From Planctomycetota bacterium (GTDB lineage: Bacteria > Planctomycetota > UBA8108 > UBA1146): a DNA stretch of 35,018 nt. The notes under the pieces were generated by a model. That model had not been told where the DNA came from and made no database searches. It saw nothing but the letters and a program-made list of their open reading frames with translations. The stretch lies in contig JAYZBV010000012.1 in the NCBI GenBank assembly GCA_036338595.1, positions 1 through 35,018 on the forward strand. The letters are read 5' to 3'. Positions 696 to 34,562 of this stretch are shown one piece after another; the first letter of the stretch is position 1; every line of letters begins with the position of its first letter. Position numbers and translations under genes: made by a program.

Positions 696-1631
696 TCAGT
701 CAAGAATCGATTGTCCCAGAGCACTGGCGATGATCCCCACGCCAACCTCCGCCGTGCGGTTTCCCTCATCGAGAACCGGGTTCACCTCGACCAGTTCAAA
801 GGACCGAACCGCCCTGGTTCTTGCAACCATCTCCATCGCCAGATGGGCCTCCCGGTAGGTCAATCCACCCGGCCTGGCAGTACCAGTACCGGGAGCGAAT
901 CTCGGATCAATCACATCGATATCAAAACTCACATGCAGGTGGTCGCAGTCGGTCAGCACCTTTTCCAGAGCCTCTTCCACCACCTCGGGAAGACCCCTTC
1001 TGTCGATGTCTTCCATCGAGTAGGCGGTGATGTCGGATTCCAGGATGCGCCGTTTTTCATCGGGGTCCAGTTCTCGCAAACCCAGCTGCACCACTCGATG
1101 GGGAGCGATCTTTGGTCCTGCAAAACCGATATCGACCAGCGAGGAGGGGCCTTTCCCCAGCAAGCACGCCAGCGGCATTCCGTGAATGTTGCCGGTTGGC
1201 GAGGTGTCGGGAGTGTTCAGGTCGGCATGAGCGTCAAACCACAGCACTCCGACCTTGGGTGGGCTTGTTGCTCCCGCCTCCTGCAGGTGGCTGGAAACGC
1301 CCGAGATGGTACCGATGGCGATGGAGTGATCGCCGCCCAGTACGAGCGGGAAACTGCCCGCAGTGAGAGCGCTCTCTACCTTTTCGGCGAGTTGAGTACA
1401 GGCGGACTCCACGACCCCCAGGAAGCGCTGCGATGGATCCCCAGCGTGGCTCGCCTCCGGGATGGGTACGAAGATATCGCCACCATCTATGGAGTTGATT
1501 TCGGCTCGTTGGAGCGCCTCTTCCAGTCCTGCAATGCGCAGGGCCGAAGGTCCCATCGAAACTCCACGTCGTCCCGCTCCATGATCGAGAGGCATTCCGA
1601 TGATCTCGACTTTCAGATCGCTGGAGTTCAT
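696..1631 (-). CDS. rocF: Arginase (ureohydrolase family, binuclear Mn)
   Basis: Motifs GGDHS, DAHADLN, SPTGNIHGMP, SFDIDVIDP, PGTGT, ELVEVNP; 311 aa; ATG overlaps the upstream stop (ATGA at 1628-1631). Confidence 0.93.
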   Translation of the reverse strand: MNSSDLKVEIIGMPLDHGAGRRGVSMGPSALRIAGLEEALQRAEINSIDGGDIFVPIPEASHAGDPSQRFLGVVESACTQLAEKVESALTAGSFPLVLGGDHSIAIGTISGVSSHLQEAGATSPPKVGVLWFDAHADLNTPDTSPTGNIHGMPLACLLGKGPSSLVDIGFAGPKIAPHRVVQLGLRELDPDEKRRILESDITAYSMEDIDRRGLPEVVEEALEKVLTDCDHLHVSFDIDVIDPRFAPGTGTARPGGLTYREAHLAMEMVARTRAVRSFELVEVNPVLDEGNRTAEVGVGIIASALGQSILD

Positions 1632-2701
1632 CTGGGTACTCCCTGCTTCTCATCCGATCCGGACTTCTCTTGACTCTTGCGGAGGCTTCCGAGCCTCTTC
1701 GCCATCAGATCGATCCTGTTCTTCAGATCGGGCCTCGACCCGAATGACTGGCGGTAGACGGTCAACGCCCTGGCAGCCACCTCAACATCTTTTGCCTGCA
1801 TGGCACCTTCGAACACCAGCCTCCAGTAGTCGGAGAAGATACCGGCGCGAGGATCGTCGAGGACCAGGCCCTGGCGGTAGATCTCCAGCATCTTCCCGGC
1901 AGCAAGATGGAACTCGCTGGTTCGAGCTGCAGTGTCGGACCTGGGGATCTTGCGGATCTTGGCGACATAGTCCTGGAGAAGCTGGGTGACAGGCTTGACG
2001 GCTCGCCAGCGTCGATAACGCTGCGTGAGTTGCTTTGAAACACCCGGCTCCTCGATGAGGCGATCGAGTTGGGCCAGTGGAGTCGATCGGACTTCCAGGA
2101 TCGATTCGACAACCTTCAACGAGGCCTGTGAACCGCTGTCTTCAGGATCGGCCTTGACTGCCGAGCGCAGATCCAGGAGTTCCTGTACCACTTCCAGGGA
2201 TGTACGAAGTCTTTTCTCCGTGTTGGGGCGAAATGCCCCCGCAGTGTCATTGCGGAGGATGACCTTGCCATCCGTGTCCATGATCACACATGTGGGAAAA
2301 GAGCGCGATCCGATGGCACGCAACAGCCCCTGATCCGGTTTGTCGGGAAGCTGGGCACTGATGTTCACATAAGGAACAAATGTAGCCGAGGCCTTCTTCC
2401 ACCATGCGGACTGGAGAGGTCCCCCCTCCAGAGCTTTGCAAGGCGGTCACGGTGAGTAGGAGCGAGTGAAGTAGGCCACGATCGGGAGGTTATCCCTGCG
2501 CGCCCGTTCCCTGGCCGCATCGAGTGTTCGTTCCCAGGTGACGTGCTTGAGAAATGCTGAGCTCTGCTTCTTCTGGTAGCGATTTTCAAGTTCAGATCGA
2601 GAAACCTGAGCATCGATGAGGCCGGGAGCCAGTATCAGCAGCAATACTGCCAGAGATCCATAGCAAGTGCGCAATTCTCTCTCTCCCTTCTCGAGCAGCA
2701 T
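1628..2701 (-). CDS. Exported thioredoxin-fold protein with UxxC motif and C-terminal helical region; probable selenoprotein (in-frame TGA at 2447-2449)
   Basis: ORFs 2447..2701 and 1628..2368 are in frame with an open 78-nt gap. Joined translation: signal peptide...WERTLDAARERARRDNLPIVAYFTRSYSP-[TGA]-PPCKALEGGPLQSAWWKKASATFVPYVNISAQ...SRSFPTCVIMDTDGKVI. This gives a Trx-like N-terminal strand, UxxC, cis-Pro loop (FPT) and DxxGK hairpin. Start is ATG 2701 or TTG 2674 (purine-rich AAGGGAGAG upstream). Confidence 0.8.
2405..2446 (-). promoter_or_regulatory. Putative bacterial SECIS element downstream of the in-frame UGA
   Basis: mRNA after UGA: CCGCCUUGCAAAGCU-CUGGAGGGG-GGA-CCUCUCCAG-UCCGCA. 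9-bp stem (2411-2431, one G-U) beginning 15 nt after UGA, small G-leading apical loop, possible lower UGC/GCA pairing. Confidence 0.65.
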
Positions 2702-2794
2702 TGGTTGCGGAGTGGTGCTGGCTTCGCTAGTCCCGGTGCTCAGGATAGCATACCTTTCTGGCCACCCTCCACCTCGATCGAAAGGAGATCTGCC

Positions 2795-3331
2795 GTGCCC
2801 TCAACCGATTCAGGCCGGCGGCCCGAGTCCTCTCGCCAGCACCGGCGCCGCCCCGCCATGACCGTTCGTGCTGCCATCGAAGATGACGGGAAGATCCTCT
2901 TCCTCAGGGCACGCGATGAGAGTGCCACCAACCCCGACGGCTGCTGGTATTTCCTTCCAGGGGGCCATGTCGATCACGGTGAGACGCTGGAGCAGGCGCT
3001 GCGCAGGGAGATCAAGGAGGAGGTGGGACTCGAGATCGAAAATTTGCGTCCTGCGTTTCTACGCGAGTTCATCGCGGGTCGGCACCAGCATGGCTCGCCT
3101 GGAATGCCCCAGGATCACCATGTCATCGCCTTGATCTACCGCTGCTGCCCATGCGAGGGATCCACCGCTCGATTCGTGCCAGGTGTCGACGGCACTTCCG
3201 AGGTCGAGAATCTGGCCTGGATGGACTGCGACCAGCTGGAGAACCTCGACATCCGGCCGCCACATCTTCGTCTGGCCCTCGCTTCTACCGGCCAGGATCA
3301 GCAAGCCTTCGAGATCTGGCCGGAAGAGTAG
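2795..3331 (+). CDS. NUDIX hydrolase
   Basis: Nudix box GGHVDHGETLEQALRREIKEEVG. Likely start is GTG 2795 after AAAGGAG (ORF track starts at 2705; ATG 2858 is an alternative). Confidence 0.88.
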   Translation: MPSTDSGRRPESSRQHRRRPAMTVRAAIEDDGKILFLRARDESATNPDGCWYFLPGGHVDHGETLEQALRREIKEEVGLEIENLRPAFLREFIAGRHQHGSPGMPQDHHVIALIYRCCPCEGSTARFVPGVDGTSEVENLAWMDCDQLENLDIRPPHLRLALASTGQDQQAFEIWPEE

Positions 3332-3396: not shown

Positions 3397-5178
3397 GTGA
3401 GGTTGACCCGGAAAAAAGCCAGTGCTGGGAGCAAGAAGACCGGCAAGGCAAAACGCAAGAGCAACAAGAAGAAGGCGAGCAAGGCCACCTCTCGTAGGCA
3501 AGGCGGGCTCTTCGATTCGACCCCGGAGCCAAAGAGCACCCGGAAGGCCAGCAAGAAAACAGCCCGAAAGAAACCGAAGAGCGCAAAGCCACGATCTTCT
3601 GCGACCATCGATGGTGAGATGGCAAAGGAGATGGCGAAAAAACAGAAGGACATCTCGGTCAGCGAGTTCTTTGCGAAGAATCGTCATCTTCTTGGCTTTG
3701 ACAGCCCCGCCCGCGCCCTGCTGACCACCGTTCGAGAAGCAGTCGACAATTCGCTGGATGCTTGTGAGGAAGCGGGAGTGGTCCCCGATCTCTTCATAGA
3801 GGTCAAGGCCATCACTGCCGACCAACATGTTGTGATCGTGCGCGACAACGGCCCAGGAATCGTACGAGAACAGTTACCAAAAATCTTCGCGCGTCTACTG
3901 TACGGTTCCAAATTCCATGCCCGCAAACAAACTCGCGGTCAGCAAGGGATCGGAATCAGTGCCGCAGGGATGTATGGAAACTTGACGACCGGAAAACCGA
4001 TGAGGGTGATCAGCAAAACCTCACGTCGTAAGCCCGCAGTAGAACTTCTCCTCGCCATCGACATGGCCAAGAACCAACCGATGGTGAAAAGGGAAGTCGA
4101 GATCGATGTGGAGTGGGCTCACGGCACCCAGGTCCAGATCGAACTGGAAGGCACATACAAGAAGGGGAAGCACTCCATCGATTCCTTCCTCGATCAGGTA
4201 TCACTGGCGAACCCTCATGTTCAGATCGAGTACATCAATCCTGTCGATGAACATCCCGTCATCTGGGACAGGGTGACCAAGGTACTCCCGGAAGCGCCGC
4301 GCGAGATTCTCCCCCATCCTCACGGTGTCGAACTGGGCATCTTGATGCAAATGATGAAGGAAACCTCGGCACGAACCGTGAGCGGTTTCATGTGTCAGGA
4401 GTTCTGTCGGGTGACTCCAAATGTGGTCAGAAAGATCAGCGATGAGACGGAGGGACTGGGGCGGAGGATCGACACCGATCGGCACCCCAAGAGACTGTCA
4501 GCTGCCGATGTGAAAATTCTGCACAAAGGAATCCAAGCCACACGCATGATGGCACCACCAACCAACTGTCTTTCGCCCATCGGTGAAGAACTGATGGGGA
4601 AAACTCTTCGAAGGAACTTCAATCCAGAAATTGTCATCACGGTGACTCGCCAGCCCAGTGTTTACCGTGGGAATCCGTTCCAGGTCGAGGCAGGGATCGC
4701 CTGGGGTGGAGAACTCCCCGGAGATGATCTGGCCTCGATCTACAGGTTTGCGAATCGTGTTCCACTCCAGTACGAACAGGGCGCATGCGCAATCACGCAG
4801 TCGATCGTTGCTTCACCGTGGAAAAACTACGAGGTGCAACAAGCCAGAGGAGCGTTACCCACGGGCTCTCTGGCAATCCTCCTGCATATAGCGAGCGTCT
4901 GGGTCCCGTTCACATCGGAGAGCAAGAAAGCGGTAGCCAGCTACGATGAGATTCTCAAGGAGATGCGTCTGGCCATCATGGAGGCAGGCCGGAAACTGGC
5001 CACTCATCTTCGAAAGAAACGGCGGCTCGCTGACGCTGAACGCAAGAAGGATTACATCAAAACCTATATCCCTCAGATCGGCATCGCACTGCAAGAAATC
5101 CTGGAACTGAGCGATACCCAGAGGACCAAGGCTGAAGCAAAACTCGCCGATGTCCTCGAGCGCAGCAGGAAGTTGTGA
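3397..5178 (+). CDS. top6B: DNA topoisomerase VI subunit B (GHKL ATPase), with Lys/Arg-rich N-terminal extension
   Basis: ISVSEFFAKNRHLLGFD, EAVDNSLDACEE, DNGPGI, GSKFH, RGQQGIGIS, PHPHGVELG, RFANRVPL, VPFTSESK are all characteristic of Top6B. Start is GTG 3397 or TTG 3403. Confidence 0.96.
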   Translation: MRLTRKKASAGSKKTGKAKRKSNKKKASKATSRRQGGLFDSTPEPKSTRKASKKTARKKPKSAKPRSSATIDGEMAKEMAKKQKDISVSEFFAKNRHLLGFDSPARALLTTVREAVDNSLDACEEAGVVPDLFIEVKAITADQHVVIVRDNGPGIVREQLPKIFARLLYGSKFHARKQTRGQQGIGISAAGMYGNLTTGKPMRVISKTSRRKPAVELLLAIDMAKNQPMVKREVEIDVEWAHGTQVQIELEGTYKKGKHSIDSFLDQVSLANPHVQIEYINPVDEHPVIWDRVTKVLPEAPREILPHPHGVELGILMQMMKETSARTVSGFMCQEFCRVTPNVVRKISDETEGLGRRIDTDRHPKRLSAADVKILHKGIQATRMMAPPTNCLSPIGEELMGKTLRRNFNPEIVITVTRQPSVYRGNPFQVEAGIAWGGELPGDDLASIYRFANRVPLQYEQGACAITQSIVASPWKNYEVQQARGALPTGSLAILLHIASVWVPFTSESKKAVASYDEILKEMRLAIMEAGRKLATHLRKKRRLADAERKKDYIKTYIPQIGIALQEILELSDTQRTKAEAKLADVLERSRKL

Positions 5179-5190
5179 GGGCGAGATAGA

Positions 5191-6342
5191 ATGAGCAAGA
5201 AGATCGCCAAATCCTACATTGATCGCGTGAAGAGAGAGAACACTCGACGCGACAAGAAAACCGTGGACAGCATCGAAAGAGCAGCTCAGGAGATCTACAA
5301 GAAGATCATGAGAAGGGGAAAACCGACGCTGCGGTTTCCCGTCAGAAGCCTGTCGAATGTTTCATACGACAAGAAAAAGGGTTACCTGGAAATCGGGCGA
5401 GCCCGTAAGGAACGGACCCTGACCGTCAACACGGTCAAGGGATTCGCACAGACGCTTCGAATGATGGGCCTCTCCAGGGAACTGGTACAGACGAACGACT
5501 TTGCGACCAAGCGAGACGTCTACTACCAATCCAAGAACTGGGCAGAGGCCAAGTTCACCGATCAATCCGAATCAGACACGGTGATGGACGACATCGAAGC
5601 ACTCTTCTCGGTCGACGATGTCAGCCGTGAACAGTTGAGATTTGTCCCGGATGAGCACGGCGGTGCAGTTGCGGGAGAGCTCGTGGTGCTCGATCCCGAT
5701 CTCGATACCGGCGAGGTTGAAAGGATCGACTGCACTCGCTTCGGAAGTGGTGCCTATTCGATTCCCTCATCGGTGGAACACCTCAGTTTCGAGACCGATG
5801 CGAAGTTTGTTCTCGCAATAGAGACCGGTGGTATCTTCCAGCGACTGCAGAGCCACAAGTTCTGGAAGAGCTCTGATTGCATCCTGGTCAGCATGGCTGG
5901 CGTCCCCACCCGCTCGACCCGGCGTTTCATCCGGAAATTGAGCGACCAGAAGAAGATTCCCGTCTACGCCTTCGTGGATTGTGATCCCTACGGTATCTCG
6001 AATATCTATCGAACATTGAAGGTCGGTTCTGGAAATGCAGCGCATATCAATCGCTTCTTCTGTGTTCCGAGTGCGTCATTCCTGGGAGTCACACCCCAGG
6101 ACATCATCGACTACAAGCTCCCCACCCATCCCCTCAAGGATGTAGATATCAAGAGAGCCAAGGATGCACTGAAAAACGACCCCTTCTTCCAGAGCAAGAA
6201 GAAGTGGAGTGCTGCTCTTGAACAACTACTCAAGATGGGTGTGAGGGCAGAGCAGCAATCGTTGGCGATGTGGGGCCTGAACTATGTCATCGAAGAGTAC
6301 TTGCCTGCAAAATTGGCAAACCCGGGCAAGTTCCTGCCCTGA
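5191..6342 (+). CDS. top6A: DNA topoisomerase VI subunit A (Spo11-like)
   Basis: Catalytic-Tyr region TKRDVYY, FTDQSESD, TOPRIM Glu (AIETGG), DCDPYG, terminal RAEQQ; directly follows top6B. Confidence 0.96.
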   Translation: MSKKIAKSYIDRVKRENTRRDKKTVDSIERAAQEIYKKIMRRGKPTLRFPVRSLSNVSYDKKKGYLEIGRARKERTLTVNTVKGFAQTLRMMGLSRELVQTNDFATKRDVYYQSKNWAEAKFTDQSESDTVMDDIEALFSVDDVSREQLRFVPDEHGGAVAGELVVLDPDLDTGEVERIDCTRFGSGAYSIPSSVEHLSFETDAKFVLAIETGGIFQRLQSHKFWKSSDCILVSMAGVPTRSTRRFIRKLSDQKKIPVYAFVDCDPYGISNIYRTLKVGSGNAAHINRFFCVPSASFLGVTPQDIIDYKLPTHPLKDVDIKRAKDALKNDPFFQSKKKWSAALEQLLKMGVRAEQQSLAMWGLNYVIEEYLPAKLANPGKFLP

Positions 6343-8681: not shown

Positions 8682-11489
8682 GTGAACGACCAACCTCCCG
8701 ACGAAACTGTGGACCAGGGCAAAATATCTCCTCCGCGCAAACGCCGGAGCAAGCCCATCACCCCCGCCCTGAGGCCATGGCTGGTGGTGGTGCTGGGCCT
8801 CTTTGCGATCCTCTCCATGAATTCCGCTTATCTGGTGACCATCACCATCGCCGAGGACTGGACCGGTGACCTGCTGCAGGATTCCTTCTACCAGTGGATG
8901 TTTCTGGGCCACCTCGGGCTCGGGCTGCTCTTCATCGTTCCGCTGGTCCTGTTTGGTTTCTGGCACCTGAGCGTCTCCTGGTCTCATCCCAACCGGCGAG
9001 CCGTCAAGGCGGGTCTGGCCCTCTTCACGGTCAGCCTTCTACTGCTGGTCTCGGGGCTGTTACTGATGCGACTCGAGGGGATCGTCGAGGTCCGCTCTGA
9101 ATTCTGGAGATCGATCTACTACTTTGCTCATGTGGCGACGCCTCTCCTTGCCGGGTGGCTATTTGTCCTGCATCGGCTCGCCGGTCCCAAGATCAACTGG
9201 TCAGCGGGAATCATGTGGAGCATCCTTGCGCTGCTCTTCACCGGGGGGATGCTCGTATGGCATCAATATTCGGGGCAGGAAGGCGCTTCCCCTTCAGAAG
9301 GTGAACAGTACTTCGAACCGTCGCTCGCCAGGACCGTAGATGGAAAGTTCATCAGCGACTCTCGCCTCATGCGCGACGATACCTGTCTCGAGTGTCACCC
9401 CTCTGCCCATGCGCTCTGGAGTCAGTCTGCCCACAAGTTCAGTTCCTTCAATAATCCTGCCTACCTGGCGAGCGTTCGAAACACGCGCAAGGTACTCCTG
9501 GAGAGAGACGGAAATGTTCACGCAGCCAGGTTCTGCGCTGGCTGTCATGACCCTGTACCCTTTTTCAGTGGAGCCTTCGACAATCCGACATACGACGATG
9601 TCAACGATCCTACTTCACAGGCGGGGATCACCTGCACCGTATGCCACGCCATCGAATCGATCCCCGGCCCGAGAGGAAACTCGGAGTTCTTGATCGGACA
9701 ACCGGACCTGTATCCCTTTGCACTGAGCGACTCGCCCCTCCTCACCTTTGTCAACCGCCAGTTGATCAAGGCGAAACCTTCCTTTCACAAGCGGACCTAC
9801 CTGAAGCCTCTGCATCAATCCGCTGAGTTCTGCAGTACTTGCCACAAGGTCCACATCCCTGAAGAGTTGAATCAATACCGTTTCCTCAGGGGGCAAAATC
9901 ACTACGACTCATGGTTACTGAGTGGCGTCAGTGGTCATGGCGTCGCCTCCTTCTACTACCCACCGAAGGCGCAGGCGAACTGCAACGGCTGCCACATGCC
10001 ACTGGTCCCCAGTGCAGATTTCGGCGCCAAGGATTTCGACGGCTCCGGTGTCAGGAGCATTCACGATCACCTGTTTCCGGGTGCAAATACCGCCATGCAA
10101 TCGATGGTCGGTACGACCCTCGAATCCCTGGAAGCGCACAGACAATTTCTCGAAGGGTCGCTGCGTGTTGATATCTTTGGAATCCGAAGGGGAGAAGATG
10201 TGGATGCGCCATTCGAGGGCCCGATCGGTCCTGGTACACCCACCCTGCAGCCCGGAGAAACGATACTGATCGAGACGGTGCTTCGCACGATGGGGATGGG
10301 ACACCATTTCACACAGGGGACCGTCGATTCAAACCAGGTGTGGGTCGAGGTCGATGTATCTCTCGATGGTCAGACCATCGCCCACAGTGGTAGCCAGGAT
10401 GAAACTGGCGTCGTGGATCCATGGTCTCATTTCGTCAATGCGCTTGTCCTGAGCAGAGACGGCAGCCGGATCGACCAGCGAAATGTAGAGGACATCTTTG
10501 TCGCCCTCTACAACCACCAGATTCCACCAGGGGCAGCCGACACCGTTCATTACCGACTCGAAGTGCCAGAGGATGCCAGCGGCATTCTCACAGTGAAGAT
10601 TCGTACGCTGTACAGAAAGTTCGATACCCACTTCTTGCACATCTTCCGGCCTCCTGCGCCAGGAGACCTTGGTGTCAACGACCTTCCCATCGTGACCCTG
10701 GGAGAAGACGAAGTCTCCTTCCCCATCGGCTCCGGGGAAGGGACCGTTGCACAAGATGAACATCCACTCTGGATGCGCTGGAATGATTACGGAATCGGAT
10801 TGCTGCGAAAAGGTGGAATGGGTGCGGTGCGAGGCGAACTGGTCTCTGCAAGCGAGGCCTTCCAGAAGGTGGTTGGCCTGGGACATGCAGATGGCCATGT
10901 CAATCTCGCTCGTGCCATGATTCGAGCCGGTAGAATCGACGATGCCGCCAGTGCGCTCTCCGATGCGGGAGGGCACTCCCCTCCTGCTCTGCCATGGACC
11001 CTCGACTGGTTCGGAGCTCGGATCAACCGCGAAAATGGCCACTACCCGGAAGCGCTGGCGTCGCTGACGAGACTTGTCGAAACACGGTATCCGGACGCAC
11101 GAAAGCGAGGATTCGATTTCTCTCGAGATGTAAGGCTTCTCAATGAACTGGGAACCGTTCACTTCGCTCTCGCTCGCCGTGAGGTTGGAGAAGACCAGGA
11201 TGCTGGGCTCGATGTGGCGAATTCCTGGTTCCAGAAGACGCTCGTGGAAGATCCAGAGAATGTGGCAGCGCACTGGAACCTCGCTCAACTCAACGATCTG
11301 ATGGGCAATCCTGAAGTGGCAAGTGAACATCGAAGACTTCATCGCAAGTACAAGCCCGACGATTCGGCACGGGATGAGGCCATCTCTGCCCATCGAAGTG
11401 CAAATCCAGCGGCAAACCACGCCGCCTCCGACATCGTGATCTATGACCTGCAGCGTGCGGCAAATAGTCCCACGCCAGGAGGAAAATGA
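8682..11489 (+). CDS. Membrane-anchored multiheme c-type cytochrome with C-terminal TPR-like repeats
   Basis: About 5 N-terminal TM segments containing His residues; five CxxCH motifs (CLECH, CAGCH, CTVCH, CSTCH, CNGCH); C-terminal TPR-like helices. Confidence 0.88.
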   Translation: MNDQPPDETVDQGKISPPRKRRSKPITPALRPWLVVVLGLFAILSMNSAYLVTITIAEDWTGDLLQDSFYQWMFLGHLGLGLLFIVPLVLFGFWHLSVSWSHPNRRAVKAGLALFTVSLLLLVSGLLLMRLEGIVEVRSEFWRSIYYFAHVATPLLAGWLFVLHRLAGPKINWSAGIMWSILALLFTGGMLVWHQYSGQEGASPSEGEQYFEPSLARTVDGKFISDSRLMRDDTCLECHPSAHALWSQSAHKFSSFNNPAYLASVRNTRKVLLERDGNVHAARFCAGCHDPVPFFSGAFDNPTYDDVNDPTSQAGITCTVCHAIESIPGPRGNSEFLIGQPDLYPFALSDSPLLTFVNRQLIKAKPSFHKRTYLKPLHQSAEFCSTCHKVHIPEELNQYRFLRGQNHYDSWLLSGVSGHGVASFYYPPKAQANCNGCHMPLVPSADFGAKDFDGSGVRSIHDHLFPGANTAMQSMVGTTLESLEAHRQFLEGSLRVDIFGIRRGEDVDAPFEGPIGPGTPTLQPGETILIETVLRTMGMGHHFTQGTVDSNQVWVEVDVSLDGQTIAHSGSQDETGVVDPWSHFVNALVLSRDGSRIDQRNVEDIFVALYNHQIPPGAADTVHYRLEVPEDASGILTVKIRTLYRKFDTHFLHIFRPPAPGDLGVNDLPIVTLGEDEVSFPIGSGEGTVAQDEHPLWMRWNDYGIGLLRKGGMGAVRGELVSASEAFQKVVGLGHADGHVNLARAMIRAGRIDDAASALSDAGGHSPPALPWTLDWFGARINRENGHYPEALASLTRLVETRYPDARKRGFDFSRDVRLLNELGTVHFALARREVGEDQDAGLDVANSWFQKTLVEDPENVAAHWNLAQLNDLMGNPEVASEHRRLHRKYKPDDSARDEAISAHRSANPAANHAASDIVIYDLQRAANSPTPGGK

Positions 11490-13312
11490 TGAGTTCTGAC
11501 GACCCTGAAGATCTCCTCGACGATGAAGAGGAAAAAGAGCAGGACGATGAAATCATCGGAAAGGCCTTTCGAGGTAGCATCCAGGTCTTCGTAGCGATAG
11601 TCCTCATCGGTTTCGCCTTGTGGTGGATCAGCCAGGAAAGAACCGAGGTCGTCGACATCGATCAAGGGGATCAGGTGCCTGTTCGTGTCAGAGACGTGCA
11701 AGCCATCGCCCCGGCCCTTCCTTTCACAGACATCACAAAAGAGTCCGGAATCGAATTCGTTCACGAAAGTGGCGCACGAGGAGAGAAGTTACTCCCCGAA
11801 ACGATGGGAAGTGGCGCTGCATTCGTCGACATCGACATGGATGGAGATGTAGACCTGATCCTGGCGAGTGGTAGACCCTGGCCCTGGAGCGATGAGCAGC
11901 CGGAGACCTCGACGGTGAGGTTGTGGCTCAACGACGGAATGGGCTCCTTCTCCGAGGCTACCCGGGCCTGGAACCTGACCTCGGACTGCTACGCAACCGG
12001 GTTGGCGATCGGCGATATCGACAGCGATGGCGATCCCGACCTGTTTATCTGTGCGGTCGGAAAGAATCAGTTACTGATCAATACCGGCACCTCATTTGCC
12101 TCCACCAACCCTGATTCTCCAATTTGCGGCGAGGATGACTCGTGGTCCTCCAGTGCTGGCTTCCTGGATGTAGACGGTGATTCCGATCTGGATCTGTTCA
12201 TCTGTGAGTATGTTCAGTGGTCTCGACAGAAAGACATCGATGTCGATTATCGACTCACGGGCGTGGGTAGGGCGTATGGTCCCCCCACCAATTTCGAGGG
12301 AACATACTGCCGATTGTTGATCAATGACGGTAGTGGAGAATTCACAGATGCCTCCGAACGATCGGGTCTGAAGATCGACGACGGGGGGCGAGCGGTTGCC
12401 AAGGCCCTGGCATTGCTGCCGGTTGACATCGATAGCGACGGAGATGTCGATGTCCTGGTCGCCAATGACACTACCCGGAACTTTCTGTTCAAGAATCGTG
12501 GTGACGGCACATTTGAAGAGGTCGGAGAAGAAACGGGCCTGGCATACGATGGAAACGGATCCACAACCGGAGCGATGGGACTCGATGCAACCGACTACAG
12601 AAACGACGGCAGTATCGGTATCGCAGTGGCAAACTTCTCTGCCGAGATGACGGGACTCTACCGGGCACAGGCGCAAGGAAGCCCATTCCTCGACGAATCG
12701 GTCAACGAAGGCATCGGCCCGCCGAGCCGAAAGTCGCTCTCCTTCGGCCTGCTCTTTCTCGATATCGATCTCGATGGTCGTCAGGACCTGATCCAGGCCA
12801 ATGGTCATCTCGAGGAGGAAATCTCATCCGTTCAACCGGGCCAGGAGTACCGTCAGGGCGCTCAGTTGTTCTGGAACAAGGGTCCAGGGAATGGCTGTTT
12901 CGAGGAGATCCCCGCTGACAAGACAGGTGCGCTGGGTACGCCTTCTATAGGCCGCGGTCTCGCTCATGCCGATATCGATGGGGATGGGGATCTGGATCTA
13001 CTACTGACCCAGGCAGGCGACAGTGCCAGGCTGCTGCGCAACGATCAAGGCACCGGCCATCACTGGATTCGTATCGACCCCGCAGACCTTCCCCCTGGCA
13101 GCTGGATCGAATGCCGACAGGCGGAACGCATTCAAAGGAGAGTCGTCGGTCGCACCCGATCCTACCTGTCTCAGTCCGAACGCTTCGTCACCTTTGGACT
13201 CGGAACTGATACTGCTGCTCCGGAAATTTTCATCCGGGCGAGAGACGGATCCGAGAGCTCATTCATCGCTCCTGGAGTCGATCAGATCGTGACAATCCCC
13301 GGTAATAATTAG
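11486..13312 (+). CDS. CRTAC1 / ASPIC-UnbV family protein with FG-GAP/VCBS-like Ca-binding repeats
   Basis: Repeated DxDxDGDxDL motifs, ETMGSG, GRGLAHAD, C-terminal SYLSQS...FGLG (ASPIC/UnbV), N-terminal TM anchor; ATGA overlap with the cytochrome gene. Confidence 0.9.
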   Translation: MMSSDDPEDLLDDEEEKEQDDEIIGKAFRGSIQVFVAIVLIGFALWWISQERTEVVDIDQGDQVPVRVRDVQAIAPALPFTDITKESGIEFVHESGARGEKLLPETMGSGAAFVDIDMDGDVDLILASGRPWPWSDEQPETSTVRLWLNDGMGSFSEATRAWNLTSDCYATGLAIGDIDSDGDPDLFICAVGKNQLLINTGTSFASTNPDSPICGEDDSWSSSAGFLDVDGDSDLDLFICEYVQWSRQKDIDVDYRLTGVGRAYGPPTNFEGTYCRLLINDGSGEFTDASERSGLKIDDGGRAVAKALALLPVDIDSDGDVDVLVANDTTRNFLFKNRGDGTFEEVGEETGLAYDGNGSTTGAMGLDATDYRNDGSIGIAVANFSAEMTGLYRAQAQGSPFLDESVNEGIGPPSRKSLSFGLLFLDIDLDGRQDLIQANGHLEEEISSVQPGQEYRQGAQLFWNKGPGNGCFEEIPADKTGALGTPSIGRGLAHADIDGDGDLDLLLTQAGDSARLLRNDQGTGHHWIRIDPADLPPGSWIECRQAERIQRRVVGRTRSYLSQSERFVTFGLGTDTAAPEIFIRARDGSESSFIAPGVDQIVTIPGNN

Positions 13313-13462: not shown

Positions 13463-14281
13463 ATGTCGAAAATCAACCTGTTTCTGATTGTAGTTTTACT
13501 TACTGCACCGGCCTCTCTGTCGGCCCAATCTGCCAGCCTTTCCATCATTGGCGGAGAAGGATTCAGGGGTGACGTCGTCAGCGCGTCGATACTGCTCACC
13601 ACTACTGCGGATCTTCACGGATTCAGCATCGGCGTCAGCCATGACCCCCTGGTTGTGTCCATCGAAACCACAGCTGGAATCCGACAAGGGGCCACGCTGC
13701 AGGCGCTCAATCTTGGTAGCGGGCCTACCTTTTTCAATGTCAACATCGCTCCTGCAAATGGAACCGGATTCACGGTCGCCTGCGTCACGGACCTGTTCGC
13801 ACCCTTCGAACAGATCCCGGTGGTCACAGATGATCCAGTACTCGAGGTGGATTACCTGATCGATATTGGGGCCACCGTTGGAGCGGTGACTCCGATCGAC
13901 TTTTCCGACCTCCTCGGCTCTCCTCCGGTAGATACCGTGATGGTATTCGAACTTCTGGAAGTTGTTCCGTCGCAAACTGGAGGATCCGTCACTGTCACCG
14001 AGCCACACTTTTTGCGCGGTGACCTGAATCAGAACGGCTCTCTATCCCTGCTCGATGGGGTACTGCTTCTGTATCGTGTTGCTGGCCTCGAAATAGCTGG
14101 ATCCTGCAGAGATGCCGATGACATCAATGACGACGGATTGCTCACCATCGGTGATGCTGTTTACCTGTTTCAGTATCTCTACGTCGGCGGTGCTGCAGTC
14201 CCGAGCCCATTCGGGATCTGTGGTCCAGATCCCGGTGCAGAGGACGGACTCGATTGCATCGAGCACAACGCCTGCCCTTGA
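13463..14281 (+). CDS. Secreted protein with cohesin-like beta-sandwich and C-terminal dockerin-like (double EF-hand) domain
   Basis: Signal peptide ending SLSA-Q; beta-rich domain (LHGFSIGVSHDP); FLRGDLNQNGSLSLLD...CRDADDINDDGLLTIGDAVYLFQYLY..GG...CGPDP...C.....CP tail. Confidence 0.75.
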   Translation: MSKINLFLIVVLLTAPASLSAQSASLSIIGGEGFRGDVVSASILLTTTADLHGFSIGVSHDPLVVSIETTAGIRQGATLQALNLGSGPTFFNVNIAPANGTGFTVACVTDLFAPFEQIPVVTDDPVLEVDYLIDIGATVGAVTPIDFSDLLGSPPVDTVMVFELLEVVPSQTGGSVTVTEPHFLRGDLNQNGSLSLLDGVLLLYRVAGLEIAGSCRDADDINDDGLLTIGDAVYLFQYLYVGGAAVPSPFGICGPDPGAEDGLDCIEHNACP

Positions 14282-19664: not shown

Positions 19665-21032
19665 TTAGAACCGGAATCCCAGCTGGACTGCCGCTCCTAC
19701 CTCGTTCTGATTCCCTGCCACGGCAACATCGACATGAAGTCCGAAGGGTGACACGCCGATTCCCACGGATGCAACATTGCGGTCGCCATCGTCCAGGTTC
19801 AATCGGTAGCCTCCACGGAGTTGCCCCCACCCTGCCAGATCCACCTCGATCCCAGCGGAGAGAAACTGATCCCGGGGAAGTTGAGGAAGTAGCCCCTCCT
19901 GGGCGATCAGGTCCAGATCGACCGCCACCGTCCACCACTCTTCCTGGCGTCCTGCTCCGAGATGAACTGTCGGTGTCAGATCCAGTGAATTTCCAGTGGG
20001 AGTCATGACTCCACTCATCGGGTCCAGGCGATGGCCGGCGTATTCGTGGGCGATGAGATTTCGCGCTGCCAGGCCCACAGTCCAGCCGTTCTCCAACTGC
20101 TGCGCAATGCCGACATCGAGATTGAAGTCCTCGTAATTCGAGATGTAATCATCGCTGTTGAAGCCACTCTCACTGGCTGTCTCATTGGAGACGCTGTAAT
20201 CAAAAAGTTCTAACCGTGTGAATTTGGGAGTCACTCCGACGGCGAGATCGCCGATTCGCGTGGAGATCGCCACGCCAATCTCTTTCCGGATTGCAGTGAT
20301 GTGATCGAGTGAGGATTGAGTCTCTGCGGGAGGCAGCAACTCCACTCCAGTCACCTCTCCTGTGACACCATCTACGGTGTAGGTGAGGTAACTCGCCAGT
20401 GCATCCAGTTGCGCTGGCGTGTTGTTGGCCAGGTTGTCGAAATCGACCTGATCCACTGCAGCCAGGAAGCCAGAGAGATAGTCTCCATCTCGATAGGCAA
20501 TCCTGCCGCCCAGTCGAGCGCCATCGATCACGTATACCTGCCAGCGAAACTGAGATTCAGAATCTTGACCCGAGTAGCCTGTGCTGCCTCCTGCCAGTAG
20601 TTCCGCACCGATGGCTCGACCACCAAGGTCGGCGAGCGCAGCGTTCAGATTGCCGAGATTGGAGATGACGGTGTTGCTGCTGGCCTCGCTGGGGCTGTTG
20701 TTGAACCCGACGATGCTAGCCTCAAGAGTGCCAAAGAGGTCCTGATCCTGGTAGACATCCAGTTGACCAAAGAGATCGTTGGGATCGGCAAAGCGTGCAC
20801 CGATGATGGGGAACTCCAGCGAGTAGCGGCGCTGTTCCTCTATCGAGAGCACTGCTGGATTGAAAAAAGCAGCCGTGGCAGGGTTGGCGACCGCGACTCC
20901 GGTGCCTCCCATCGCCATCGATCGGGGATCGAGTCCCGCCTGACCCGGAAGCTCCGGTGACAGCAACAGCAGTAAGCAGATCAAACAGAGCAATCTGGAG
21001 ACACCAGTTATTCCTGGCAATGGTTGTGACAT
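19665..21032 (-). CDS. TraF_2/FadL-like outer-membrane beta-barrel protein
   Basis: Signal peptide, plug motif SMAMGGTGVA....A.FFNPA, amphipathic beta-strands, C-terminal QLGFRF (Bam signal); RBS AAGGAAG. Confidence 0.78.
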   Translation of the reverse strand: MSQPLPGITGVSRLLCLICLLLLLSPELPGQAGLDPRSMAMGGTGVAVANPATAAFFNPAVLSIEEQRRYSLEFPIIGARFADPNDLFGQLDVYQDQDLFGTLEASIVGFNNSPSEASSNTVISNLGNLNAALADLGGRAIGAELLAGGSTGYSGQDSESQFRWQVYVIDGARLGGRIAYRDGDYLSGFLAAVDQVDFDNLANNTPAQLDALASYLTYTVDGVTGEVTGVELLPPAETQSSLDHITAIRKEIGVAISTRIGDLAVGVTPKFTRLELFDYSVSNETASESGFNSDDYISNYEDFNLDVGIAQQLENGWTVGLAARNLIAHEYAGHRLDPMSGVMTPTGNSLDLTPTVHLGAGRQEEWWTVAVDLDLIAQEGLLPQLPRDQFLSAGIEVDLAGWGQLRGGYRLNLDDGDRNVASVGIGVSPFGLHVDVAVAGNQNEVGAAVQLGFRF

Positions 21033-21377: not shown

Positions 21378-22733
21378 ATGAAATTGCTCTCCGCCTCACT
21401 GACGGCACTGATGCTCGCTCTCCTGATGGGGTGCGTCACGGTGCTGCTCGAATCGGCCACGAACAGCACCCCCCCGATCGCAGACTCCACCGATGGGACC
21501 CCCGGCACGGATGCCACCGCGGGAGATCCCACCACTGGAGATCCCACCACCGTGGCCGTGGCACGGATCGTTGCGCCAAAGGAGGACCTGGCCCCCTTCA
21601 TCGACGAGGCGCTCGACTGGCTGGCGAACGCGCAGCACGACAGTGGTGGTTGGGGTGCCGGATCCCATTCATCCCAGCAGATCCGGGATCCCCACAAGGT
21701 CCAGACCGATCCTGCAACGACAGCCTTCACCGCGATGGCACTGCTTCGAGTCGGTGGTAATCCCACCTCGGGGAAGTACAAGGATCACCTGAGAAAGGCC
21801 AGCGAACATCTGGTACGAGTCGTCAACGAATCCGATGCCGACGGGCCCACCATCACGACACTTCAGGGTACCCAGCCTCAATCCAAGCTGGGTCAGTTCA
21901 TCGACACATCGATGACGCTGCAATTCCTGTCGCGCATCCTCCCCAAACTCCCGGACTCTGATCCCCTGCATGCACAGGTAGATGCGGCACTCGACAAGTG
22001 CCTCGTCAAGTTGCAGAACTCCCAGAAACAGGACGGCAGCTGGGGAGGTGGTTCCTGGGCAGGAGTACTGCAATCATCGGTGGGCTGTTCCGCACTCGAA
22101 TGGGCGGTTGCTGCAGGGAAAACGGTCGATATGGATGCGCTCGACCGCGCCAGGGGGCATCAGAAGGACAACTTCAATGCAGAAACCGGTAGAGCCTCGG
22201 CGGATGACTCTGCAGGGATCGAACTGTACGCCTTCGCCGGATCCCAACGCGCTGCTGCCAGTGAAGCAGGAGCGGCTTTTCAGATCATCGAGAATGCGAA
22301 GAAAGAGGGGTTACTGGAAGCCGATGCCGAGTGCACCGCAGAAAACCTGAGATTGGTCGGAATCGATGCACCGAAGGCCACCACCCTTGCCAGTTCCTTT
22401 GCCCTGAGCAGGGCTCAGCTCAAGTTGCTCGACAATGAACAGATGTTGAGTGGATTTGGCAATAACGGCGGTGAGGAGTTCCTCAGTTACATGCTCACCA
22501 GCGAGTCCCTGGTGCTCCAGGGGGGCGACGCATGGCCAAAGTGGAAGAAAAAAATGCACACACGGATGGCCAAGATCCAGATCGCCAATGGCAGCTGGAC
22601 CGGACACCACTGCATCACCAGCCCGGTCTTCTGCACCGCAGCGGTCGTCCAGTGCCTGACCGCCGACCGCGACGAGGAGTTGCTCCGCGTCCTCAATGAT
22701 AGGGATGCCCAGAGCAAGCCTGAAGAACTGTAA
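21378..22733 (+). CDS. Prenyltransferase/squalene-oxidase-repeat (alpha6-alpha6 barrel) protein, probable lipoprotein
   Basis: Lipobox-like LLMGC; Thr/Pro/Asp linker (TAGDPTTGDPTT); QW-type repeats QHDSGGWG, QKQDGSWG, QIANGSW; C-terminal GHHCIT; RBS AAGGAAGGA. Confidence 0.8.
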   Translation: MKLLSASLTALMLALLMGCVTVLLESATNSTPPIADSTDGTPGTDATAGDPTTGDPTTVAVARIVAPKEDLAPFIDEALDWLANAQHDSGGWGAGSHSSQQIRDPHKVQTDPATTAFTAMALLRVGGNPTSGKYKDHLRKASEHLVRVVNESDADGPTITTLQGTQPQSKLGQFIDTSMTLQFLSRILPKLPDSDPLHAQVDAALDKCLVKLQNSQKQDGSWGGGSWAGVLQSSVGCSALEWAVAAGKTVDMDALDRARGHQKDNFNAETGRASADDSAGIELYAFAGSQRAAASEAGAAFQIIENAKKEGLLEADAECTAENLRLVGIDAPKATTLASSFALSRAQLKLLDNEQMLSGFGNNGGEEFLSYMLTSESLVLQGGDAWPKWKKKMHTRMAKIQIANGSWTGHHCITSPVFCTAAVVQCLTADRDEELLRVLNDRDAQSKPEEL

Positions 22734-22736
22734 CCG

Positions 22737-23864
22737 ATGGGTTGGAGCGTCTTCAGTAGCTGCTTGAGTCTCATCCTGGTGATTTCTCTGGGGGGATGTT
22801 CCACTTCGGATCCCACACCCGTAGTGGCTTCCCCCCAGCAACTACTCGAGCGTGCGTGCAACTATCTCTGGGCGCAGCAAGCCGAGGATGGTGGCTGGCA
22901 TTCCGAGACCCATGGCCTGCTCCGTTCCGGACAGGCATTGACGCCCTTTGTGCTCTTCACCCTGCTCAAGATGGCTCCGGATATTTCTCAGCAACATACA
23001 GACGATGTGGCACGCGCCATCGCATTCATCCGGAGCAGCGTCAATGACGATGGAGTCGTCGGACTGAGCGATCCAGATGTGGCTGAATATCCCAACTATT
23101 CCAGTGCCTTCGCCTTGCGTTGCCTGGTCGCCGCAGGCGATTCGACAGACCGTCACCTGATCGACCGGATCTGTCGATACCTGCAGTCTCAACAGTTTTC
23201 TCAGGAACGTGGATTTGATCGCGAGCATCCAGTTCACGGAGCCTGGGGATTCGGCGGCTCACTTCCACTGGGTGGATCGCCTGGCCATGTGGATATTTCC
23301 TATACTCGCCATGTTCTGGAAGCTCTTCGGGATGCGGACGCCATCGATTCGGGTATCGCATCCAGGGCTCAGTTGTTCCTCAAAAGGATGCAAAGAGATG
23401 GTGGCTTCTATTTCTCTTCCGTGGTGGAAGCAGCCAACAAGGGCGAAAGCATCCCTGCGCCCGAGGGCGAGGGGACCATCTACTTGCCCTATGCCACCGC
23501 CACGAGCGAAGGGCTACTTGCGCTGCTGGCGGCGGGTGTGAAGCCGGATGACCCCAGGGTGCTCATCGCGATCGACTGGCTCGATTCTCACCCCGACCTG
23601 GAGCACCCCGGCGGCATCCCCGAGGACCACCCTGATCGGTGGGGACAGGTGCTCTTCTTCTATCACCTCGCCATCCGTGGAGAGGTCGCCTTCGCTTCCG
23701 GAGACGGAGCTCGATTGCTGCAGCCGATGACGGAATTGCTGGCAGATCGACAAAGAGTGGATGGAAGTTTCGTCAATCCTCATGGCACCCTGATGAAAGA
23801 GGACGATCCGATCCTTGCCACAGCACTTGCGGTCACTGCACTGGGAGCTGCGCTCACTCCTTGA
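22737..23864 (+). CDS. Prenyltransferase/squalene-oxidase-repeat lipoprotein
   Basis: Lipobox LGGC; QAEDGGW, GAWGFG, QRDGGF, QRVDGSF repeats; starts 3 nt after the previous stop. Confidence 0.8.
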   Translation: MGWSVFSSCLSLILVISLGGCSTSDPTPVVASPQQLLERACNYLWAQQAEDGGWHSETHGLLRSGQALTPFVLFTLLKMAPDISQQHTDDVARAIAFIRSSVNDDGVVGLSDPDVAEYPNYSSAFALRCLVAAGDSTDRHLIDRICRYLQSQQFSQERGFDREHPVHGAWGFGGSLPLGGSPGHVDISYTRHVLEALRDADAIDSGIASRAQLFLKRMQRDGGFYFSSVVEAANKGESIPAPEGEGTIYLPYATATSEGLLALLAAGVKPDDPRVLIAIDWLDSHPDLEHPGGIPEDHPDRWGQVLFFYHLAIRGEVAFASGDGARLLQPMTELLADRQRVDGSFVNPHGTLMKEDDPILATALAVTALGAALTP

Positions 23865-32536: not shown

Positions 32537-34390
32537 TCAGGGCATCACTTCCAGCAGCCTGGAGCAATCGGGGTCCGTCAGCCACAGCGCCGCCTCGGAT
32601 GGTTCCTGGACGTCTTCCCCTCGCAGGGCAGAGTGCAAGGCGATCGTGGTCTGATTGCCATGGCCCTCGAGCAACAACTCCGAGAGCGCCCCACGCGCTG
32701 GTGCATCGGCCACCTCGGAACTGAGCAACGAGAGTGCCCCGACCATCAAGGCTGCCGATACATCCGCCGGGTCCTGCTCCAGTTTTGACCAGAGAAGCCC
32801 CCGGATGGACGGAGCCGAATCTCCAAGAATCCGCTGTTCGTTCCAGCGTACCGACAACAACGAAGGATCCAGTTCGATGGCCACGGCGAGGTCCTCTGCC
32901 GCACCTTCGACATCCTCCACCATCAGGCGACCCATCGATCGCAACAGCCATGGCAGTCCAACATCGGAGAGACCCTCGAGTGCATCATCGATCAGCGGCA
33001 ACGCCAGCGCAGGATCGCCACCCGCCATGGCATGCCAGCCGTCGCAGAGATTCGCCCGGAAAATCTCCAGGTCTGAAGATTCTGCGATGGGTTCGTCATC
33101 GGCGAACTGGATGGTCGCGTCACTGGTGCTGTAGTCATCACCACCACCCCGGGCCGTGGAAATCCACACCGAGGATCCGTATCGAGAACTCCAGCGGCCG
33201 TGATGCCACCAGATGAAGTGCGAACTCGAACTGTAGCACCAGGGGAGTGCCCAGCTATGGCACCAGGGATCCGGATGATGCAGGTACCAGGGGCTCCAGC
33301 AGCCGACCGCCCAGGGGTGGTGCCACACGGAACCATGGTGAGTCCAGCTGCCCAGATAGGTGGTGTAGTAGTAGGAGGAGCCTGGCAGGCAATACCACGG
33401 AAGTGGCGTGCTGGGCCAGTTGTAGACGGTGGTTCCGCCCGGGATGTTGGTCCCGCCCGCAGGGGAAACCGGGGGTAGCGGCAAGGGGTACGCCGGCGGG
33501 GCAGATCCCGGTCTGGGCGAGAGGGAGACTCGCCTCGAACGGGTCGTCGTGCCGGTCAGCGGCTTTCGGGGCCCGCTCGGTTTTGCGATTCTTCGGATCA
33601 GGGCTCGAGTCGCATCCGCAGGTCTCGTCACCAGGGGCTTCGTTCTCGATGGCTTGCGAAGAAGGGTGCGAGTCGTCCCCAGTGCAGTGGACACTCGACC
33701 ACGTGTATCGCGCAGTGTCACGGTGCCCAGCAACTCCTGGGTCGCTCGATCCTGATTGCGGTCACGCAGCGCAGGAAGCGGCTTCTGCCCCGGCAACGCC
33801 GCCGGGATCACCTCTCGAGGAACACGGATGGTAGGCCGCACCGTCGAGCGCGGCCGGATGCTGGTCGAGGATCCAACCGTGGAACGGCTCCGAGAAGATG
33901 AGGCACGCGAAGATGGGGAACGAGCTGCTGCGCTTCGGCTCGGCGTCGGAGTGACGATGCCGCTGCTCCTGGTCGAGGGGCGAGGCTGGCTGGAAGTGGT
34001 TCTGGGTCTCGTCGAGACGGAGCCGCTCGATCGACTCGATGGTCGCACCTGTGGTCGGGTGGTCGTCGGCCTGGGCTGAACCTGAGGCCGAGTCTGAGGA
34101 CGGGGTGTCGGACGCACCTGCGGCCGTGACTGAGGACGGGGCGTCGGGCGCACCTGCGGCCGCGACTGAGGACGGGGCGTCGGGCGCACCTGCGGCCGTG
34201 ACTGAGGACGGGGAGCCGGGCGCACCTGCGGTCGCGGCGCTGGACGCGCCAGTGGCCGCACCTGAGGGGTTGCTGGCCGGGTGGAACTGCCTCTCGAACC
34301 GGCCTGGCTCCAGGCTTCCAGCGGAAAAAGCAGCGCCGGGACCAGCACCAGTAGCATCAGCATCTGAGATCGAGTTGAAGAACCGATCAT
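32537..34390 (-). CDS. Secreted protein: Pro/Arg/Ser/Thr-rich repeat region, Trp/His/Tyr-rich segment, C-terminal TPR-like domain
   Basis: ATG 34390 after GGAGGGAG; signal peptide ending AWS-Q; low-complexity tract; TPR-like segment (AAEDLAVAIELDP). Confidence 0.7.
   Translation of the reverse strand: MIGSSTRSQMLMLLVLVPALLFPLEAWSQAGSRGSSTRPATPQVRPLARPAPRPQVRPAPRPQSRPQVRPTPRPQSRPQVRPTPRPQSRPQVRPTPRPQTRPQVQPRPTTTRPQVRPSSRSSGSVSTRPRTTSSQPRPSTRSSGIVTPTPSRSAAARSPSSRASSSRSRSTVGSSTSIRPRSTVRPTIRVPREVIPAALPGQKPLPALRDRNQDRATQELLGTVTLRDTRGRVSTALGTTRTLLRKPSRTKPLVTRPADATRALIRRIAKPSGPRKPLTGTTTRSRRVSLSPRPGSAPPAYPLPLPPVSPAGGTNIPGGTTVYNWPSTPLPWYCLPGSSYYYTTYLGSWTHHGSVWHHPWAVGCWSPWYLHHPDPWCHSWALPWCYSSSSHFIWWHHGRWSSRYGSSVWISTARGGGDDYSTSDATIQFADDEPIAESSDLEIFRANLCDGWHAMAGGDPALALPLIDDALEGLSDVGLPWLLRSMGRLMVEDVEGAAEDLAVAIELDPSLLSVRWNEQRILGDSAPSIRGLLWSKLEQDPADVSAALMVGALSLLSSEVADAPARGALSELLLEGHGNQTTIALHSALRGEDVQEPSEAALWLTDPDCSRLLEVMP
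34081..34266 (-). repeat. Intragenic 36-bp tandem repeat (about 4 copies plus degenerate flanks) encoding RPQSRPQVRPTP
   Basis: Unit CTGAGGACGGGGYGTCGGRCGCACCTGCGGCCGYGA repeated on the plus strand. Confidence 0.9.
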
Positions 34391-34562
34391 CGGACTCCCT
34401 CCAGACTTCGCTCTTCGGCGCCGTGAATCGGCACCGGTACAGTGGGGACCGCCCCCAGGATACCACCTGGGCTGCCTTTCAGGGAGACGGCAGCATCGGG
34501 CCATCTGTGGAAAAACCGCACCTCATGACACCCTGCACCGAGATGACGGCGATATACGGCGA

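Follow-up and report, generated by a model that had tools for sequence, protein, structure and literature searches.

The window, i.e., the whole stretch of 35,018 nucleotides of planctomycetotal DNA analyzed here, carries on its minus strand two open reading frames of 84 (2447..2701) and 246 amino acids (1628..2368) that are joined in frame across a TGA at 2449-2447. Read from 2701 to 1628, this strand gives 357 codons with a single internal stop, namely this TGA, which is codon 85 and lies in the context AYFTRSYSP*PPCKALE, at the first redox position of a U-P-P-C motif. The translation thus bears out an earlier note on this DNA, which had described two in-frame reading frames with a lone TGA at the first redox cysteine, and had placed the remainder of the fold beyond it: both the SFPT loop (with Pro136) and the IMDTDGKV stretch are 3' of the TGA. 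An ATG at 2701 lies in frame upstream and would add nine residues relative to a TTG at 2674; the latter is the likelier start, since it follows a purine-rich tract and agrees with the starts of the orthologs. The whole gene would therefore span 1628..2674 on the minus strand and specify a precursor of 348 amino acids with selenocysteine (Sec) at the internal TGA (2447..2449, predicted U85) and a resolving cysteine, C88, at 2438..2440.

The predicted product begins with a Sec-pathway signal peptide (2609..2674, minus strand) with a hydrophobic core and a likely cleavage site after IDA, a call made by a heuristic on hydrophobicity; a hydrophobic nine-residue window (mean >=2.0) precedes the site in 107 of the 108 copies scored. 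This is followed by a thioredoxin-fold domain of the DsbH/ERp18 type (approximately residues 52-175; 2177..2548, minus strand), in which Pro136 (2296-2294), invariant in alignment A3, occupies the cis-Pro position by fold, and by an all-helical, TPR-like C-terminal region of eight helices (1646..2224, minus strand). The true stop, a TGA at 1628..1630, overlaps as ATGA the start codon of a gene directly downstream on the same strand (696..1631), whose product scores above the cut-off of the arginase model TIGR01229. A scan for promoters and terminators returned nothing beyond chance.

The internal TGA recurs in the same column in all 31 loci of the set L019-L049, among them that of the window gene and that of its paralog (contig C28), and in a search of 61 genomes every one of the 27 others that belong to the same family gave a match. 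Of 401 Planctomycetota genomes searched with a profile, 117 matched at E<=1e-15, 98 of these at E<=1e-40, and TGA is held by 140 of the 150 places listed, a further 42 places lying outside the listing. When loci L019-L123 were checked at the level of this column, 110 distinct copies emerged: 92 with UxxC, 10 with CxxC and 8 with other configurations. The set is non-random and combines the top-scoring loci with deliberately fetched non-TGA copies and seven loci from a Cys-requiring pattern. The resolving Cys is present in all 92 TGA copies; at the column of the TGA, other library proteins and gene copies have Cys and, in a few cases, Trp, and the site variants include SxxC and WxxS. The relatives, where their sources name them, are Planctomycetota or Planctomycetes (6 of 7 records in the Cys-pattern search), and the family is often present in several paralogous copies per genome. 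Among 168 library proteins, 101 span the site (64 as CxxC), 42 are C-terminal fragments, 7 break off at the residue preceding it and 18 are pieces of another kind, and most of the close library matches are C-terminal fragments; thus, because gene callers split the TGA genes, the protein libraries look Cys-dominated, the opposite of the genomes. The homolog search proposed in the earlier note finds either TGA or Cys at this column with conservation on both sides of it, and a UGA aligned with the Cys of homologs between conserved flanks is the pattern of a SelB/SECIS-dependent selenoprotein. In this gene, as in the majority of its relatives, the TGA coincides exactly with the active site and very likely encodes Sec; the two fragments would then probably form a single gene for an exported redox enzyme.

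Downstream of the TGA, at 2431-2411 (2411..2431, minus strand), lies a bacterial SECIS-like hairpin that is absent from the earlier note. For bacterial SECIS elements, section 5 of PMC13188914 gives a loop of 3-9 nt with a G in the first two loop positions, a distance of 16-37 nt after the UGA and an energy <=-7.5 kcal/mol; the hairpin has a 9-bp stem, a GGA loop, a spacing of 24 nt and an energy of -13.5 kcal/mol, its folding energy departing only mildly from expectation (z -1.1 to -2.2). An alignment of 26 sequences has 90.9% of its stem cells paired, with changes on both sides in three of the eight pairs, while all six slid controls fall below the real stem at 46-67% paired; for the shuffle control, related sequences may beat it even without structure. 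Pairing is complete at five fixed stem positions in 89 of the 92 TGA copies versus 6 of the 18 non-Sec copies, so that this fixed-position test did separate the two classes. Likewise, codon +34 is CTC, CTT or TTC in every one of the 92 Sec copies and never CTG, which accounts for 731 of the 2101 Leu codons further down in the same genes; these stem and codon counts are descriptive only, because kin are not independent. Two further candidate discriminators failed: a generic SECIS energy filter, which in GC-rich DNA passed 80/81 Sec and 13/19 non-Sec rows (several of the latter mis-located), and the Glu codon GAG, which is found in 86/92 Sec and 15/18 non-Sec copies.

The host genome, of about 2.9 Mb, has selA, selB, selC and selD all above cut-off, with selA, selD and the tRNA-Sec (anticodon TCA) together on contig C72 and selB on C108; the Sec machinery, whose absence the earlier note had named as fatal to its proposal, is thus complete, and the selD gene itself holds one TGA. 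Across genomes, selA is found in 95 of the 98 with a strong family match, as against 200 of 303 others, and the remaining three of the 98 have selB above cut-off. The host also carries a dozen or more candidate genes for selenoproteins, of which many are predicted to encode envelope thioredoxin-fold proteins. This list is an incomplete one of candidates, because the genome-wide TGA scan yields many false ones, e.g., at gene junctions; in its first ranking selD was absent among the best 110 of 170 rows. The earlier note had also pointed to UGA being decoded two ways in one mRNA, and the gene does end in TGA (1630-1628), as it stated; as a special feature of this gene, though, dual use was rejected, for a terminal TGA is ordinary. 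The stops of the 92 Sec copies are TAG in 39, TGA in 36 and TAA in 15, with 2 running off the locus end; TGA terminates 544 of the 841 long open reading frames in the host genome, being the commonest stop there; and no hairpin follows the terminal TGA of the window gene (folding z +0.60).

An AlphaFold model computed from a 118-sequence alignment (pLDDT 93) orders the protein as two short helices, the thioredoxin domain and the eight helices. In this model a strand at 74-80 is followed by a helix at 86-92 with U85 at its start, so that the first core helix opens with the U-x-x-C and a Pro takes the cis-Pro position, as would be expected of a thioredoxin fold; a weak match to PF13899 is found in addition. 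The best structural match is the chlamydial DsbH 2ju5 (Z 12.4, rmsd 2.5, 113 aligned residues), followed by 3ira, AGR3 and 7tkv at a distance of about one Z unit or less, and the Foldseek matches also include ERp18 and YbbN, the YbbN chains 3qou and 3qdn being among the six at E<=0.001. The helical domain folded alone gives a confident model (pLDDT 96), the best match of which, at Z 7.4 and mostly among TPR proteins, is at background level; Foldseek found nothing for it at E<=0.001. Naming this domain after a known fold was dropped, there being nothing above background, which is no proof of a new fold. The signal heuristic and the models thus support the earlier note on export, on the thioredoxin fold and on a helical C-terminal region, which here measures about 190 amino acids.

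Set against the known families, the protein has recognizable kin and no curated home. The "thiol:disulfide interchange protein" selenoproteins (PF13098, UxxC) listed in Table 1 of PMC13188914 share with it the UxxC thioredoxin fold, a single Sec, a bacterial SECIS and a likely envelope location. Yet the window protein, P0001, scores only 14.5 bits against the PF13098 cut-off of 27, and 18 of 118 members match at E<=0.01; the FTRSY motif, the N-terminal helices and the helical domain of ~190 residues are additions of its own family. The closest solved fold is DsbH (NF043050; PDB 2ju5) of chlamydiae, which is likewise exported and found in an organism with a DsbD; the window protein differs from it in having Sec for the first Cys and an extra helical domain, at 22% identity. 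The cut-off of 190 of the DsbH model is not reached: P0001 shows no match at E<=0.1, and a close TGA member, the L074 copy, scores 42.4 bits. The sole NCBIfam match of P0001 is the VPGUxxT thioredoxin-like (seleno)protein type 2 (NF041383), also a thioredoxin-like selenoprotein, at 18.7 bits versus a cut-off of 275 and with SP-U-PPC (UxxC) in place of VPGUxxT. The Trx7/PDZ (seleno)protein (NF041199) and TsoB (NF045694) have a Thioredoxin_7-type domain in common with the family and match 24 and 26 of the 118 members weakly; their motifs, however, are CxxU and UxxxxU, whereas P0001 has UxxC with no PDZ, rhodanese or DsbD part and matches neither, and a PDZ domain occurs in 1 of the 118 alignment members. 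YbbN/CnoX (PDB 3qou, 3qdn) resembles the window protein in having a thioredoxin domain followed by TPR-like helices, but the Foldseek E of 7.8e-5 goes with a TM-score of 0.21, and the Z of 6.7 of 3qdn for the helical domain is background.

Over the 118 members the commonest NCBIfam matches are weak ones to the DsbH, VPGUxxT, TsoB and Trx7/PDZ models, and none of the curated cut-offs of NCBIfam (release 20) is reached by P0001 or three other TGA members. A literature search returned no description of the family, which a broad published category could still cover. The earlier suggestion of a possibly undescribed family therefore holds insofar as the family is absent from NCBIfam release 20 and from the available portions of the 2026 inventory, and is weakened insofar as such a category could absorb it. 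This is, in short, a large Planctomycetota family without a curated model that would work in the manner of UxxC thioredoxin-fold selenoproteins already known, and its mode of recoding is a standard one.

By analogy with the established SelB/SECIS pathway, SelB would bind the hairpin 24 nt 3' of the internal TGA and bring Sec-tRNA, and the terminal TGA, which has no hairpin, would end translation. Removal of the signal peptide would leave a protein of about 326 residues comprising the predicted DsbH-like and TPR-like helical domains. The Sec85 selenolate might then attack a disulfide or an oxidized Cys in a protein of the envelope that the helical domain holds, Cys88 would resolve the adduct to leave a selenenylsulfide, and this would be re-reduced by DsbD. 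The resemblance to DsbH and the presence of a DsbD gene in the genome thus lead us to see the window protein as probably a disulfide reductase of the cell envelope. DsbH, according to PMC4217174 a periplasmic reductase that also isomerizes weakly, is also the subject of the NCBIfam model matched by most members (60/118 at E<=0.01); the fold alone does not set the redox direction. The host DsbD gene is split over contigs C106 and C53, which overlap by 141 bases, and is not linked to the window gene. Its C-terminal domain reads FTGHT-U-QNC; among the matches listed for this part a TGA is found in 26 of 28, the other two being fragments that miss the site, and the column was confirmed in 6 of 12 loci, those caught by a strict pattern. 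As a reductase, the window protein would likely be fed by DsbD.

The alternatives concern either the reading of the codon or the role of the enzyme. That the locus is a nonsense pseudogene, an assembly error or two separate genes is scarcely credible, even though public gene callers list the halves apart, with 42 C-terminal and 7 N-terminal fragments among the 168 library proteins. It is one codon in one column across dozens of families, and a contig of another study (X4, record 15, 2406-3142; not flagged as a possible source) crosses the TGA unchanged, the sequence runs checked against this codon being assembled contigs and not raw reads; with TGA in 31/31 loci as well, the misassembly entertained in the earlier note falls away. 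Three RNA runs hold only 5-10% of the stretch's words, and the one aligned leaves the TGA uncovered and is uninformative. Both halves, which together build one confident fold, are under purifying selection: comparison of 11 pairs of orthologs puts dN at 0.17-0.29 before the TGA, at 0.09-0.40 for the thioredoxin portion after it and at 0.29-0.76 for the helical portion, while dS is 1.4-3.0 or saturated. Hence the picture of a pseudogene with all-Cys relatives and a relaxed downstream half also fails, the relatives having TGA and dN lying far below dS on both sides. A reading of UGA as Cys or Trp through code reassignment or an unusual tRNA might draw on the Cys and the few Trp seen at the column in homologs, and Cys-inserting selC-like tRNAs do occur in some bacteria; this too is very improbable, given TGA as the commonest genomic stop, the full Sec pathway, in which selD itself has a TGA, and a SECIS-like stem that goes with the TGA copies.

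With respect to role, the same exported selenoprotein might mainly be a disulfide isomerase or a redox-protective chaperone whose helical domain holds unfolded envelope proteins, a possibility to which we give a minor but appreciable weight. The thioredoxin plus TPR-like architecture is that of YbbN/CnoX, two chains of which are among the Foldseek matches, and some paralogs retain the helical domain although one redox residue or both are gone (8 of the 110 copies), which would fit redox-free binding. However, the YbbN TM-scores are 0.21-0.24 over the query and nothing matches the helical domain specifically; YbbN/CnoX is cytoplasmic and is not known to be exported or to be a selenoprotein; and turnover is suggested by the strict retention of U-x-x-C across 92 copies. 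An oxidase, a reductase of peroxides or small molecules, or a partner of the arginase is a less probable role still. Sec enzymes do often reduce peroxides, but the structural matches are to neither DsbA nor peroxiredoxin. As for the arginase, the stop of the gene overlaps its start and it lies downstream in 20 loci, all of which are within the same order; elsewhere the only recurring neighbor is another paralog (11 loci), the host's second paralog has different neighbors, and an exported protein, as this one is inferred to be, would not meet a cytoplasmic arginase. The linkage being confined to one order, the arginase was set aside as a partner and is probably not functionally linked to the window gene; the neighborhoods of the family loci give no clue to the substrate.

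The distribution of Sec and Cys forms bears on how the family evolved. A midpoint-rooted tree from a fast search was built on 89 genomic copies (71 Sec, 18 non-Sec) after removal of 21 close loci and duplicates and of the active-site and hairpin columns. In it the non-Sec copies nest among Sec copies, as in a tandem Sec/Cys pair in genome G236 (support 99.9) and the pair L121/L105 (99.4), which suggests that Sec has been lost repeatedly. Parsimony at equal costs places Sec at the root with 11 losses and one gain (cost 12 vs 14); if a loss is made as costly as three gains, the better score falls to a non-Sec root with 28 gains (31 vs 33). A part of the family may yet be Cys-ancestral, because two large non-Sec groups, both with poor support, stand in a larger tree of 178 sequences to which library proteins were added. 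That the Cys forms arose through a loss of the Sec machinery was rejected for the sample, since selA is present in all five Cys-copy genomes tested, two of which have a TGA copy too. For comparison, a 2006 survey reports Sec-to-Cys events in only four families (PMC1794560), and section 10 of a 2026 review describes this change as rare in bacterial thiol oxidoreductases (PMC13188914). More tentatively, and as a possibility we would not yet bet on, the whole might be seen as a phylum-wide, multi-copy family in which Sec is ancestral and was lost some ten times in hosts that retained the Sec machinery, and which forms one arm of a selenium-wired envelope relay in seawater bacteria, with a Sec-DsbD feeding Sec-DsbH-like and Sec-TlpA-like proteins.

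The family is found in about a quarter of the sampled Planctomycetota genomes (98/401), and the databases show mostly its minority Cys forms, because most copies are split into "hypothetical" fragments; a single new HMM would mend its annotation. Selenoprotein-rich bacteria are mostly anaerobes according to the 2026 review (PMC13188914). The host's DNA occurs in seawater: 17 DNA runs contain half or more of the stretch, and wherever their habitat is stated it is seawater or marine. If the reading of the tree is true, the family would offer numerous naturally occurring sister pairs of Sec and Cys forms, including one arranged in tandem within a single genome, and such pairs would allow one to ask what Sec adds in an exported oxidoreductase.

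Counting the window gene, the genome from which the window derives (G000) holds at least 13 candidate selenoprotein genes in 2.9 Mb. These span several protein types: three TlpA/ResA-like proteins (C77:29038-30345, C77:14041-15411 and C38:8864-10039), a double Thioredoxin_7 protein (C34:48883-49917), a Thioredoxin_7 protein with a helical tail (C77:20134-20727), an ArsC-family protein scoring above the cut-off (C55:5069-5467), a UshA-like protein (C33:3816-5429), an MsrB-MsrA fusion (C73:76743-77711), a paralog of the window gene (C28:2772-3917) and selD (C72:32307-33386). Two sets of near-duplicates, C21 versus C34 (900/938 bases alike) and C93 versus C33 (247/296), were each entered once in the count; they may reflect the 7.2% contamination of the assembly.

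The same count includes a DsbD-like protein and an FG-GAP protein. The former is encoded by C106:1-2370 joined to C53:1-843 (loci L135, L136) and attains a length of about 960–1000 aa in its relatives; its C-terminal thioredoxin domain carries FTGHT-U-QNC, a motif conserved throughout the order. The latter, a predicted exported FG-GAP repeat protein (C54:28428-29714; loci L128, L154), has an in-frame TGA in PTT-U-CICFCP. A TGA is present in 18 of the 19 relatives' matches listed, the remaining one being a fragment, and the TGA column was verified in 7 of 10 loci. The protein had no match in NCBIfam and, as far as Table 1 of PMC13188914 goes, the family is absent there. It represents a candidate selenoprotein family, possibly of greater novelty than that of the window gene.

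Relatives of the window gene also occur as arrays of 2–4 tandem paralogs, at G357:C262 (L111), G264:C29 (L114), G302:C149 (L108) and G236:C79 (L104); in three of these four, paralogs with Sec stand alongside Cys or redox-dead ones. Three Cys copies (L073, L109 and L072) retain a SECIS-like stem that is fully paired and at the usual position, a pattern as expected from a recent Sec-to-Cys change. Further, P0086, P0166, L100 and L108 are forms of about 500 aa that are devoid of the first redox residue, and in them the helical region appears to have been duplicated.

The window itself encodes, in adjacent genes, the B and A subunits of DNA topoisomerase VI (3397-6342, + strand), an archaeal-type enzyme that occurs in some bacteria too; its genes lie upstream of window-gene relatives in about 20 loci. 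Elsewhere on the + strand are a 935-aa cytochrome c554-like/TPR protein adjoining an FG-GAP/ASPIC-UnbV protein (8682-13312), a 272-aa ORF without a Pfam match (13463-14281) and two neighbouring proteins with weak squalene-hopene cyclase C-terminal matches (21378-23864), while the − strand codes for a TraF_2-like protein (19665-21032) and a 655-aa ORF, likewise without a Pfam match (32537-34504).

Across the phylum, selA was found in 295 of the 401 Planctomycetota genomes sampled, whereas it was found in only 1 of 21 genomes of family f10 and in 0 of 5 of family f8 of this sample. Thus, Sec use is widespread yet patchy in the Planctomycetota.
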